This document shows, piece after piece, positions 22,567 through 50,155 of a stretch of DNA of 64,000 nucleotides. The position numbers and the translations under genes were made by a program. Every line of letters begins with the position of its first letter. The stretch's first letter is position 1. The DNA comes from Schmidtea polychroa (Eukaryota), in NCBI GenBank assembly GCA_044892525.1, contig CM097887.1, positions 94,156,397 through 94,220,396 on the forward strand, read 5' to 3'. A model generated the notes under the pieces. It made no database searches. It had not been told where the DNA came from and was given only the letters and a program-made list of their open reading frames with translations.

Positions 22567-23332
22567 GAGCACACTTCTCTCTACTGTCTTCCAATGGGAG
22601 ATCTTCTTTTCTGTTACGCTAAAACTCAACTTACTAAGTTTGAAATCGCTTCTAATTACTTTTGAATTTACCAAGCTTCATTCTTAGACCAACTGGCAAT
22701 TCTGTTGACTTGGTGCTCTTTTTATACTCATTCTATAATTAAATTCTTTCTCAATCAAATTGGTTTTGTCATTTTGGGCATCTTTCTCTCCACACTTCCA
22801 CATGCTCATCTAATTTGTTTTCAATTTGGAGCTTTTAGGTTTTGTTGGGCCAAGCTCCGAAGGTGTTGGAAAAGCGAACCGAAGAAGGGATAGAGTAAAA
22901 TAAAATAAAAACATATAAAAAATACGAGAAACATAGGAGGAAACAAATTAAATATCCAACAAAGAAATTAGAAAAACTAAATAAAATAACAAAACCCCTA
23001 AAGGAAAAATAAGACAAGAGGGAAGGCACCTAATAAACGACAGTAAAAGAAAAAAAAAATAAAATAGCAGAAAATTTAAGAAAAATGAACAAAAGTAAAA
23101 GAAGAAAAACAAAATAAAAATAAAAAATCATCCATAAGGCTAATTAAAACAAAAAATGAAGTTACAATAAAATAGCAACAAAACCACAAGAAAAACAGAT
23201 AAAATAATAAAAAATAGGAAAATAAATAAAATAATAATAAAAATAGGAAAAAAGTCATTAAAATATACCTGATTACATTAAAAAAACATAAAAATCATAA
23301 TAAACAATAATATTACATGCAAGTCGCGTCCT

Positions 23333-23357
23333 GATTGGACGAAAAGTAATATATAAA
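23333..23357 (+). promoter_or_regulatory. LTR promoter: CCAAT box (reverse) plus TATA box
   Basis: ctgattggacgaaaagtaatatataaag; typical U3 spacing. Confidence 0.55.
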
Positions 23358-23725
23358 GAGCGACAAAAATCTGTAGAGTATCATTCTAACCCGAAACTCT
23401 ACAGGTAAAATTTTATCCTTTATATAATCATTCTAACCCGAAACTCTACAGGAAAACTAGGAGCAACTCACAAGCACAGATTATTGAACCATATTCATTC
23501 ATCGGATAATATATACATTTAACGGAGATCGAATTCAGTTCAGTCGAACGAGTCCATCTAAAGAAAACTTATATTATTTTGATTTAACACCTTCGGAGAT
23601 TTTTGGTAAATTATGTTTTAGATTTTAGCATGATGATTTAAATATTTATTATGAATTTAACAAGTCGCTTATACTTCAATAAATTTCATATTTTAAACGA
23701 AGGTGTTGCTTTCTCTCTATGATGC

Positions 23726-23736
23726 TGGCGACGACG
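23726..23736 (+). other. Candidate primer-binding site (TGGCGACGA, complementary to a tRNA 3' end such as tRNA-Ser ..TCGTCGCCA)
   Basis: TGG start, located downstream of the poly(A) signal in the repeat; tRNA identity is unverified. Confidence 0.45.
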
Positions 23737-25663
23737 TCCTCTGGAGTCCGGGTATGATGCAGTTGGATTTTTCGAACGTCCTACGGAGAGGACATTTACG
23801 AATATGAACTCAGGAAATTGAAGTGATAGAACCAGCCCAAGATCCATATGAATTTAGAAACTAAAGTGATTACTTAATGAATAAGAGATTTATATTAACT
23901 AGAGTCATCATGCCCGGAATCCAAATGTCGTGGTCGCCAGGTGAACATTTATTTAATTGATTTCCTCATAATTCCATTATTTCTATATTGTTTTATTGAA
24001 TAATTAAATTGTATTATTGCACATTTAATGAGAATGGAGTTGCGATGAGACGGGTCGAGTCGTCCTTCACACCGGTCCAAGAGCAGTGGGCAGAGATGCG
24101 TACTGCCTTGGGTGGGTTGTGAGGAGCGAGGAAACCATGTGAGATTTAACAAATCAAGTAAATGATTCTTTCATCGAGTGTAATCCACCCATCTTAGTCG
24201 TCGAAAACCATCCAATGCAGAAACTTCTGAGTGACATAGTTTGAATCAACGATACCTTGGGAACTCCAGGAGATATACCATTAAAACTATCATCAGCATT
24301 GTGTCCAATCACGTAATTAAATAATCTTGGATTTTGAGCCATATTCGTCTTGCATTGAGAAAAGTGACTGTTAGAATGTCCGCCGGAAGGAGTTATTAAT
24401 TTCGAGTTTTTACGAGAAATTCTCTGTATTAAGCCCATTTCGTATCTTGCAATCTGAAGATGCCTTAGAATCTACACCGCCAGTAGGTTAGCGAATAGAT
24501 CCATCGTCTTGCTTATCGTCGACTCCGGGGAAACTTAATCACCAACCGACAACTAGTCGCTGTCATCGATAATAGCCGTTTTAGAGATGAGTAAACATCT
24601 CCAGATAGTAGATTTAAACACTGGCTATGAGTCCGAAAGAAACGGTCGCCAGCGACATTGGGTGAGCGTAGTAGACTGCCGGGAAATCGGTTGATAAGAT
24701 ATCTGAAGCCTCAGTCACGAGCAAACGAGTTGACAGTTTTTATCTCAAAACCAATTAGTAGAGAAAAATCTAAATATAAAATCAATCTTATCTAGTAGAT
24801 TCGCAATTAACCCACACAATTAGATTCATGTGATTTCTGTGACACTCTCTCAGACTCCAACCTATCTGGAAAATCAGCCAGCAATGTCATGTCTAGTGTG
24901 CAGATAGTAGATAAATTTATCTCACAATTGCGTACCGGTAAAATAAGAGATGATTAGACTACATGTCCAACCCGACAGCGAGATTACGTCATACTGAATA
25001 GTAGAATTTCTACCTAGTCCACAAACACAGGCTGACAATAAATCACACAATGCATACATACGAACAGACCTGACGACATCTGCTAGCCTACATCCAGAGT
25101 GAAACTAATACACCACTATTCACAAACAAGCGTCGTCATGACGACATTTATGGCGCAAGATTTAAGATGATCAAATAGCAAATTATAATGAGAGTTAAAT
25201 TAAATTTTTGCGGTTCCTTTTTCTTTTATGAAGCCGATCACGATGTTTAAAACACCCATAGTCACCAGTCATACCGAACTAGGTTTTTGCGACACAACTC
25301 GCGCGTACTTTCATGAATATAGTAGCGCGGGAGTGGGAATGCTATTACTAGGGAAGGATAATTATAATAAATTCGACTGTGGTAAATTAATAAAGGCACA
25401 TTAAATAAAAATGGCCAATTTCAGAAAGACAAACATAAAGTCAAAGTTATGATAAATGTATTATTTCGAGGAATTCCGTTTTCTTTTTCTCTATCAGTAT
25501 GGATGCTTGCAGACAAATGAGTGTGAATGTTGACCAGCGCCATGGGTAGGTGGGTCATTGTCGAGTAGTATGATTGAAAATAGGGAAAAACTTGCAGTCA
25601 AAAATTTGGAAACGACACTCCAATGAATTTTTTTTTTAATTAACAAAACGTCTTGATCTTTAG

Positions 25664-48252: not shown

Positions 48253-48307
48253 TTAAAGATGAATGATCAATGTAAATAATTGTAAATAAAAATTTTCGTA
48301 TAGTAGT

Positions 48308-48943
48308 ATGTGGTTCGGAGCAACCCTGGTGACAATAATGATGATAGCGATAAACGGAGTACCCATGTGGCAGCCAATCCCAACACTCTGGGAGAATCCC
48401 GAGAAACAGCAAAACCCGTTAACCAAACTGAAAAGCGAAAGAAAGCTCTCCAACAACATCCCGAAACAATGCTGGAACAAAGCCGTCTGGAAAAAACTTC
48501 AAATGCAACTCCACCTACAAACCCAAAAAATCGAACAGCTCGAAATTCTCTTACAAGAACAAACCACCCAACAATCCTTGAAGGAAATCATCGTGAAGAA
48601 GGAAGTAAAAGAAAGTCAAGTCCTACTCTCTGCTACCATCAGTGAAACCCTTATCATCTGCGCACTAGTCATCTGGAAAGCGTATGATATTCATCGAACA
48701 TGGAGAAGAAACCAGTCACTATCCGAGAAACACGAAAGAAAGAACCCACGACCGAAAAATAAACATAAACGAGCAGTACATTTTCAACAACCAAACCCAC
48801 CCGACCAAATGCAACAAAATCTATCTCCTGACCAAATGCCTGCTACAATCCAGCTCCCCACGATAACAACTTCAACCAGCCATCCGACCCAGAATTCAAC
48901 CAACCAAGACAGTAATAACATTCCGAACCTCGAGATCATGTGA
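48308..48943 (+). CDS. Small predicted membrane protein (N-terminal signal-like segment, coiled coil, TM, basic then Pro/Gln/Thr-rich tail)
   Basis: MWFGATLVTIMMIAING at the N-terminus; VLLSATISETLIICALVIW hydrophobic stretch. Confidence 0.6.
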   Translation: MWFGATLVTIMMIAINGVPMWQPIPTLWENPEKQQNPLTKLKSERKLSNNIPKQCWNKAVWKKLQMQLHLQTQKIEQLEILLQEQTTQQSLKEIIVKKEVKESQVLLSATISETLIICALVIWKAYDIHRTWRRNQSLSEKHERKNPRPKNKHKRAVHFQQPNPPDQMQQNLSPDQMPATIQLPTITTSTSHPTQNSTNQDSNNIPNLEIM

Positions 48944-49172
48944 CATCGACCATTCATAAACTTTGTGTGTATAAATCCGGTCACCTAAAGTGGCCACTGC
49001 TTGCTTATTTTTGTCCTTTTATCTGTTTAATTAAAGTATTATTTAGTTATTTTAATTTTATGTTTGTGTGGATTTTGATTGTGAGATTAGTTGTTATACT
49101 GAAAGAAGGTACGATTCGAATGTACGATATTATGTGAATTGCGGGACGCAATTTTAACGGGTCCCGGAGTGA

Positions 49173-50155
49173 TTTGTTGGGCCAAGCTCCGAAGGTGTTG
49201 GAAAAGCGAACCGAAGAAGGGATAGAGTAAAATAAAATAAAAACATATAAAAAATACGAGAAACATAGGAGGAAACAAATTAAATATCCAACAAAGAAAT
49301 TAGAAAAACTAAATAAAATAACAAAACCCCTAAAGGAAAAATAAGACAAGAGGGAAGGCACCTAATAAACGACAGTAAAAGAAAAAAAAAATAAAATAGC
49401 AGAAAATTTAAGAAAAATGAACAAAAGTAAAAGAAGAAAAACAAAATAAAAATAAAAAATCATCCATAAGGCTAATTAAAACAAAAAATGAAGTTACAAT
49501 AAAATAGCAACAAAACCACAAGAAAAACAGATAAAATAATAAAAAATAGGAAAATAAATAAAATAATAATAAAAATAGGAAAAAAGTCATTAAAATATAC
49601 CTGATTACATTAAAAAAACATAAAAATCATAATAAACAATAATATTACATGCAAGTCGCGTCCTGATTGGACGAAAAGTAATATATAAAGAGCGACAAAA
49701 ATCTGTAGAGTATCATTCTAACCCGAAACTCTACAGGTAAAATTTTATCCTTTATATAATCATTCTAACCCGAAACTCTACAGGAAAACTAGGAGCAACT
49801 CACAAGCACAGATTATTGAACCATATTCATTCATCGGATAATATATACATTTAACGGAGATCGAATTCAGTTCAGTCGAACGAGTCCATCTAAAGAAAAC
49901 TTATATTATTTTGATTTAACACCTTCGGAGATTTTTGGTAAATTATGTTTTAGATTTTAGCATGATGATTTAAATATTTATTATGAATTTAACAAGTCGC
50001 TTATACTTCAATAAATTTCATATTTTAAACGAAGGTGTTGCTTTCTCTCTATGATGCTGGCGACGACGTCCTCTGGAGTCCGGGTATGATGCAGTTGGAT
50101 TTTTCGAACGTCCTACGGAGAGGACATTTACGAATATGAACTCAGGAAATTGAAG
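49173..50155 (+). repeat. 3' LTR-like direct repeat (983 bp)
   Basis: Appears identical to 22841-23823 by eye. Preceded by gggacgcaattttaacggg (PPT-region-like). Abuts the truncated polB. Confidence 0.8.

Follow-up and report, generated by a model that had tools for sequence, protein, structure and literature searches.

The closest described relatives of the element reported here are the Burro retrotransposons of the planarian Schmidtea mediterranea, comprising Burro1/GYPSM1 as well as Burro-2, -3 and -4 (Jurka 2007; Grohme 2018), cited here as described in the Burro text of PMC6431247. In that text, Arkhipova & Yushenova (2019) place the Burro env between Bcl-2 and the protease, in the same reading frame, together with the same cargo as at our locus, report matches of env to mononegavirus fusion proteins and already put forward the idea of an apoptosis and ubiquitin 'tinkerer'. 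More recently, six S. mediterranea elements with the order GAG-ENV-POL were described (Chary & Hayashi 2026; PMC13524379), in a paper whose main text gives no match for either TRAF or Burro. Derepression of BURRO1 was observed in differentiated, intestine-enriched cells, and neoblasts showed it only upon triple knockdown of PIWI (PMC8532177), which argues against a stem-cell-specific role.

Here, we analyzed a window of 64,000 nucleotides from Schmidtea polychroa (GCA_044892525.1, contig CM097887.1, positions 94,156,397 to 94,220,396, forward strand), which holds a Ty3/Gypsy element of a young Burro family, in a copy that has suffered damage. Published work already covers the family and its cargo, the position of env and the idea of host tinkering. 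What our analysis adds is evidence that the cargo is under purifying selection, a primer site for tRNA-Pro and, within the LTR, a conserved ORF of 253 aa, none of which was found in the literature searched (Grohme 2018 and the figure of PMC6431247 aside). The window layout may already be shown as Burro-2, -3 or -4 in the figures or supplements of Grohme 2018.

Boundaries and damage of the window copy

The features of the element are as follows:

22843..26959, +, 5' LTR of 4,117 bp (TGTTGGG...CCCAACA) with a 7-bp terminal inverted repeat
25664..26425, +, 253-aa ORF inside the LTR: helical N-terminal part, Pro/Ser/Thr-rich middle, Arg/Lys-rich motif
26967..26984, +, primer-binding site, an 18-nt perfect complement of the host tRNA-Pro(TGG) 3' end with CCA
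27450..27929, +, 159-aa ORF with helical N-terminus and C-terminal IAP-type RING, without BIR
28507..28872, +, tandem repeat in the leader, 72 bp x5
30259..33972, +, gag portion of the polyprotein with a Retrotrans_gag match, three CCHC knuckles and two segments weakly resembling ubiquitin
33920..34240, +, gag/pol break of the window copy only: frame change, then stop
34559..35020, +, divergent Bcl-2-fold domain; BH1 NWGR motif absent, BH2-like GGW retained
35105..36970, +, envelope: chuvirus/HSV-gB-type fusion glycoprotein with Cys-rich ectodomain
37454..40500, +, PR (DTGA), RT (YIDD), RNase H and integrase (H2C2 + rve)
40985..42550, +, ankyrin-repeat region
42550..44134, +, polyprotein C-terminus with hydrophobic segments at 43133-43189 and 43913-43969
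44303..44662, +, 119-aa ORF, 31% identical to its sister family counterpart
44752..46140, +, full-length TRAF without introns (RING, zinc fingers, coiled coil, MATH)
46317..48252, +, two coiled-coil-like ORFs of 358 and 247 aa without Pfam match
48308..48943, +, 211-aa ORF with one transmembrane segment
49175..50155, +, truncated 3' LTR, first ~980 bp only

A first-pass annotation of the same DNA had proposed a 27.3-kb unit bounded by 983-bp LTRs. Both sizes were wrong: the 3' LTRs of 10 other copies measure 4,096-4,137 bp and all match 22843-26959, which makes the 3' LTR of the window a stub and the whole element 30.4 kb long (26,332 + 4,117). The stub stops at ~50155, where a tandem duplication of ~50 kb has its junction, with 2-bp microhomology and a Polinton-like polymerase fragment on the other side. 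The second lesion, a frame change near 33.95 kb followed by a stop at 34238-34240, is private to this copy, the corresponding stretch being open in one frame in 10/10 other copies examined.

The 5' LTR carries TATATAAA at 23350 and an ATTGG box at 23334, and the primer-binding site follows it after 7 nt; matches from a first pattern search for this site were sister-family elements, not tRNA genes. TG...CA LTRs, a tRNA-Pro primer site and a short target site duplication, combined with a gag followed by PR-RT-RH-IN, are the terminal features and the domain order of Ty3/Gypsy elements (Metaviridae).

Protein domains and comparison with Burro and errantiviruses

Most domain assignments of the first-pass annotation were upheld by profile searches. 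This applies to gag (Retrotrans_gag, 4e-9) and the pol domains (RVP 1e-7, RVT_1 1e-36, RNase H 4e-39, integrase 1e-20/1e-12), to the fusion glycoprotein (PF24664, 2e-72; transmembrane segment at 36797-36853), the ankyrin repeats (Ank_2, 2e-16), the IAP-type RING (zf-C3HC4_3, 3e-8; closest solved structures are cIAP/XIAP RINGs) and the complete TRAF (3e-25; nearest TRAF3/2). The ubiquitin-like modules fared less well, with only weak matches at about 32761-32901 and 33733-33837 (Pfam E 0.005-0.025; best PDB profile E 0.06, to ISG15). For the Bcl-2-like domain, Pfam yielded only E 0.05; the fold is nevertheless backed by a PDB profile match to Bcl-xL (E 0.002), by hhalign against host Bcl-2 genes (94.6%) and by an AF2 model (pLDDT 77), with which 47/47 among the Foldseek matches listed belong to the Bcl-2 family, at E-values of 0.012-0.075 and none <= 0.001. 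Single-sequence fold prediction gave no usable model of this domain (pLDDT 41). As the NWGR motif is absent and hhalign drops to 70.8% with only two Burro families in the profile, a BH3-binding role is unproven. Large protein databases returned no match for the Bcl-2-like domain, nor did they or the PDB for env, in both cases weak evidence, and the stretch upstream of env stays below the hydrophobicity cut-off applied for a signal sequence.

Further parts of the polyprotein are harder to name. Between PR and RT, where Burro has a dUTPase-like segment, lies a conserved segment of ~110 aa that was assigned to no family by Pfam or PDB profiles, and the C-terminal part (42550..44134) is possibly a second membrane protein of no family; the ESM Atlas had no usable match for it, and an FN3-like guess found no support in a profile search.

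The earlier assignment to enveloped, Burro-type Ty3/Gypsy elements stands. The window family shares with S. mediterranea Burro, as described in the text of PMC6431247, a multi-copy element of >30 kb, a gag with three CCHC knuckles, BCL2, an env lying between BCL2 and PR in the same frame, ankyrin and TRAF/MATH cargo and accessory ORFs, as well as a single giant polyprotein from gag to ANK (~4.9-5.1k aa for Burro; 4,873 aa in S. mediterranea versus 4.7-4.8k aa here) that is present at the family level and broken in the window copy. For the ubiquitin/SUMO-like motif that Burro has before BCL2, the window family offers a putative counterpart in its weak ubiquitin-like matches (E 0.005-0.06). The suggestion that an env in the middle may be undescribed is contradicted by the same text, which states this very position for Burro. 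Differences concern the cargo: compared with Burro1/GYPSM1, the window family is without MATH inside the polyprotein and without BIR, and its full TRAF has an ORF of its own further downstream, whereas in D. tigrina MATH lies in an upstream ORF (PMC6431247). The Burro text of that paper makes no mention of an LTR-borne ORF.

The same genome also harbors a sister family, B (loci L111-L118 and L139-L148). It is 91% identical to the window family in RT, 81-82% in IN, 58-60% in env and 35% in Bcl-2, and both have an LTR ORF, a leader RING ORF and a downstream TRAF. Only family B additionally possesses a MATH between two Ubl segments of the polyprotein and a BIR-RING IAP ORF, the published Burro1 layout, and the RT identity to this family links the window family to Burro indirectly. 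In the window element and nine sisters, MATH occurred only in the downstream TRAF ORF and no BIR domain was found.

Judged from its sequence, the gB-type env between gag and pol also agrees with GAG-ENV-POL errantiviruses of the HSV/gB type. Smed_errantivirus_5 has the same order and env type, and about 57% of env positions match by eye over 188 aa (107 matches), cysteines included, while the sister family env resembles Smed_errantivirus_6, again by eye. In PMC13524379, the tRNA type of all six S. mediterranea elements is entered as 'none' and LTR coordinates are absent, in contrast to the tRNA-Pro site and 4.1-kb LTRs of the window family.

Copy number, age and selection

The survey of copy number and ORF intactness that had been suggested as a check revealed at least 150 scored copies, 58/150 of which retain a frame of >= 4,700 aa encoding Gag-Ubl-Bcl2-Env-PR-RT-RH-IN-ANK, with Ubl as a putative part; the TRAF ORF is free of stops in 84/92 scored copies. 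With 4-bp target site duplications in 9/10 copies and LTR pairs 99.7-100% identical over the first 1.3 kb (10/10 pairs), the family is young and its insertions are very young. Contigs from runs that may be RNA cover most of the element, with 28/30 and 30/30 bins for X1, which does not show transcription; neither the uncovered part at 24773-25544 nor, in one contig, a poly-T loose end at 23677 is taken as evidence.

The envelope, Bcl-2-fold, TRAF, RING and ankyrin cargo is kept under purifying selection. Against the most distant sister copy, dN/dS amounts to 0.02 for env, 0.03 for Bcl-2 and RT, 0.07 for RING, 0.10 for ANK, 0.11 for TRAF and 0.14 for the LTR ORF, with ranges of 0.02-0.03 (env), 0.03-0.05 (Bcl-2), 0.07-0.13 (RING), 0.10-0.12 (ANK) and 0.11-0.15 (TRAF); the pooled pairs all include the window copy and are hence not independent. 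The two coiled-coil-like ORFs gave pooled pN/pS of 0.14 and 0.20, while the 211-aa ORF showed no sign of purifying selection (1.18 over 6 copies). Together with a cargo present in the same order in 9/9 sister copies, this selection supports the earlier view that the cargo belongs to the element and is no chance nesting. The view of the cargo as passive DNA, captured or nested, is very improbable and largely refuted by dN/dS of 0.02-0.2 for all but the 211-aa ORF (alone near 1), by the identical order and by homologs in a second family, even if one contig hints at a variant without the TRAF and coiled-coil ORFs.

Possible roles of the cargo and the LTR ORF

Under purifying selection as it is, the cargo probably serves the Burro element by damping apoptosis and innate signaling in the host cell during replication, and is likely to keep that cell alive. 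LTRs, tRNA-Pro primer, RT/RH/IN and 4-bp target duplications are those of standard retrotransposition; processing of the polyprotein would presumably fall to its own protease together with signal peptidase, Env entering the ER and the transmembrane segment bringing Pol back to the cytosol. For the Bcl-2-fold domain, the partners might be host proteins of the BH3 or Bax/Bak type; TRAF and the RING without BIR may be E3 ligases, or else decoys, in TRAF/TAK1/TBK1-MAPK signaling, not necessarily NF-kB, and Env could mediate particle movement between cells. Several observations speak against this reading: flatworm TNF receptors are reported to be without death domains, the smedwi-2 phenotype was not rescued by RNAi of BURRO1 (PMC8532177), and the NF-kB label attached to the cargo at first is doubtful, as no clear NF-kB homolog was found in S. 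mediterranea (PMC13563047). A Rel-domain search of the genome studied here also came up empty, but it missed its controls as well and is no evidence.

A less likely scenario, which nonetheless deserves consideration, is that the cargo is structural or aids particle assembly and traffic while host survival is unaltered. Ubl, ANK and the Bcl-2 fold would then be modules for membranes or scaffolds, and RING and TRAF would help with budding or ubiquitin. The location of Bcl-2 fold and Ubl within the polyprotein directly before Env in three families, the lost BH1 motif and the missing BIR of the window family fit this scenario; a complete TRAF, including RING, zinc fingers and MATH, and the full BIR-RING IAP of family B, however, are dedicated signaling and death regulators. 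Even less probable appears a benefit for the host, in which cargo held by host-level selection protects neoblasts or helps regeneration: although intact copies are many and planarian TRAFs are reported to be expanded and wound-induced, RT and IN are under equal selection, fitting element-level selection, MATH domains of the host TRAF cluster fall into a clade (100/100) that excludes the Burro TRAFs, and PIWI silences BURRO1, with derepression mainly in differentiated cells (PMC8532177). In any case, constraint on cargo domains similar to that on RT, dozens of full frames and very young insertions render the 2019 hypothesis of host tinkering testable, and the planarian is a tractable animal for this purpose.

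The LTR ORF, conserved yet unexplained, merits attention. It is free of stops in 10/10 LTRs and 144/150 scored matches and has a homolog in the sister family LTR (32%); neither a Pfam family nor a usable ESM Atlas match was found. Its Arg-rich motif raises the idea of a Tat/Rev/Bel-like regulator. Conceivably, though rather doubtfully, Burro would then be a still-active 'complex retrovirus' with env, death and immune modulators and a selected LTR gene acting in transcription or RNA export, passing from one planarian cell to another in enveloped particles and preventing the death of these cells.

Counts of TRAF, IAP and Bcl-2 genes for planarians, genomic or transcriptomic, can be inflated by the copies that Burro carries. 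The idea that the TRAF expansion of planarians is mere Burro cargo was rejected, since 11 MATH domains from the host cluster group in a clade of their own in a tree (one MATH row under 95 aa left out) in which the Burro MATHs group weakly (84/79).

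Boundaries and coding content

The true 5' LTR of the Burro-type element spans 22843-26959 and is matched by ten other 3' LTRs (4,096-4,137 bp, terminus CCCAACA); the 983 bp initially taken as the LTR are a repeat covering only its first quarter. From the LTR extent and boundaries, the whole element measures 30.4 kb. A 4-bp target duplication flanks nine of ten LTR pairs, and the 18 nt at 26967-26984 are perfectly complementary to the end of the host tRNA-Pro(TGG). The same tRNA, which primes the window element, gives 2,305 pattern matches across the genome, with a long tandem gene array of 475-bp period at G000:C1:130.90-130.95 Mb (L151).

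30259-33972 and 34388-44134, + strand: two long ORFs, besides several short ORFs, also +

Pfam recovered gag, CCHC, protease, RT, RNase H, integrase, ankyrins, a RING ORF (closest to cIAP/XIAP RINGs), a complete TRAF ORF (closest to TRAF3/2) and an env of the Monjiviricetes (chuvirus-type) fusion glycoprotein type (2e-72). These modules were hence confirmed, whereas the Bcl-2 and ubiquitin-like modules of the first-pass annotation reached only E 0.05 and 0.005-0.025, respectively, in Pfam. Over 30259-48943, the coding strand contains 42-43% A, and copies differ by 1391 A/G versus 952 C/T changes.

For the Bcl-2-like domain, an alignment including sister families gave an hhalign match of 94.6% to host Bcl-2 genes (70.8% when restricted to the two Burro families) and Bcl-xL as top PDB match (E 0.002). 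The structure predicted from it (pLDDT 77) retrieved Bcl-2 family members in all 47 Foldseek rows shown (TM 0.44-0.64, though at E 0.012-0.075); the BH1 NWGR motif, looked for in this domain, is absent. The Bcl-2 fold is thus supported; the function of the domain is putative. Outside the elements studied, a dispersed multi-copy Bcl-2-like match carries a recurring in-frame TAG (L082-L086 and similar rows).

An ORF of 253 aa with an Arg/Lys-rich motif lies entirely within the LTR and is free of stops in 10/10 retrieved LTRs as well as in 144 of the 150 matches scored; no family match was found in Pfam or the ESM Atlas. By analogy with Tat, Rev and Bel, it may be regulatory. Other LTR subfamilies carry variants of this ORF at 72-76% identity, and the sister family has one at 32%. 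Since copies with such LTR ORFs (72-76%) have TRAFs 95-98% identical, LTRs either have been exchanged or change more quickly than the genes between them.

A new Burro family member

According to section 7 of PMC6431247, Burro1/GYPSM1 exceeds 30 kb, has a 4,873-aa ORF and encodes gag with three CCHC, MATH_TRAF, BIR, Ubi, BCL2, ANK and dUTPase-like domains. Its env, with mononegavirus fusion matches, lies between BCL2 and PR, termed the first such case there; the suggestion that env-in-the-middle may be undescribed is therefore not supported. PMC13524379 reports six S. mediterranea elements of GAG-ENV-POL order, of which number 5 has an env about 57% identical, by eye, to that of the window family. 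Related literature includes PMC4894443, PMC7958881, PMC11410931 and PMC13238120.

The window element is a new Burro family member. It is not Burro1 itself, because a search of the window family found neither polyprotein MATH nor BIR; possibly it matches Burro-2, -3 or -4, known here only via PMC6431247. In contrast, a sister family in the same genome (RT 91%, IN 81-82%, env 58-60% identity) has both a polyprotein MATH, flanked by two Ubl segments, and a BIR-RING ORF. A compact family (env 34%, RT 50%) carries a Bcl-2 domain at the same position. A MATH tree of 32 rows places the Burro TRAFs in a weak group of their own, separate from an 11-row host cluster. Host TRAF/MATH gene clusters, at G000:C2 about 1-5 Mb and 105-124 Mb, form their own clade. 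The relationships among these families point to a dugesiid planarian as the probable host.

In the window copy, gag is separated from the remainder of the polyprotein by a frame change and a stop, in a region that is a single open frame in all ten other copies examined. The whole polyprotein is open in four of nine dispersed copies, and frames of at least 4,700 aa occur in 58 of 150 scored Bcl-2-region matches, a biased count as these are the best-scoring of 923 candidates. TRAF lacks stops in 84/92 scored matches. In 10/10 copies the two LTRs share 99.7-100% identity across 1.3 kb, whereas divergence between copies reaches about 8-14% and is mosaic; several recombining lineages have therefore inserted very recently. 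One contig set from X1, a sequencing run only guessed to be RNA, jumps over TRAF and both coiled-coil ORFs (window 44652-48270) without splice ends, which suggests a deletion variant lacking them.

Selection on the cargo and its possible role

In comparison with the most divergent sister copy, pairwise dN/dS is 0.02 for env, 0.03 for Bcl-2 and RT, 0.07 for RING, 0.10 for ANK, 0.11 for TRAF and 0.14 for the LTR ORF; pooled values from nine copies, whose pairs are not independent, are close to these. The exception is a 211-aa membrane ORF (pooled 1.18, 6 copies). To judge from these ratios, the cargo is under selection, and chance nesting, the case that would have undone the first reading, is rejected on the low values (0.02-0.14).

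The window family has the components of tRNA-primed retrotransposition and shows recent integration. Beyond this, we rather favor a joint scenario in which the polyprotein would be processed with a membrane-threaded Env, particles would pass from cell to cell, and the cargo would dampen intrinsic apoptosis and TRAF-TAK1/TBK1 signalling. Apoptosis tinkering by Burro was already proposed (PMC6431247). PMC13563047 reports no clear NF-kB homolog and TRAF induction via TBK1, PMC6109357 a TRAF expansion, and PMC8532177 that BURRO1 is silenced by PIWI and intestine-enriched once derepressed. Structural or assembly roles of the cargo are a less likely but serious alternative to such dampening; a benefit to the host appears improbable, and a passive cargo highly so.

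Tandem duplication and neighborhood

Window 1-13587 and 50534-64000 (G000:C3 94.156-94.260 Mb): ~50-kb tandem duplication, junction with 2-bp microhomology, copies >99.9% identical
Window 50128-52893 and 1-2359, - strand, and L035: Polinton/adintovirus-like element flanking the duplication
Window 12071-22589: 10.5-kb fold-back element, ~3.8-kb inverted arms, many short repeats, without long ORF
L021:6562-8082: intronless Hsp70-family ORF, 507 aa, ~2 kb past the 3' LTR of the twin

The 3' LTR of the window copy ends early, at ~50155, where the duplication junction meets a Polinton-like polymerase fragment. The twin of this copy follows immediately beyond the window, with the same left flank, a complete 3' LTR and >99.9% identity. 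The two are a few changes apart and are broken at different places, consistent with a real duplication, although an assembly error could still account for it. The Polinton/adintovirus-like element shows a type-B DNA polymerase (Pfam 6e-12) together with a Pox_A32 packaging ATPase (1e-8) that lies immediately before the window begins; the truncated 5' part of the element is present as a 921-aa ORF. Ends similar to those of the fold-back element occur at L034.
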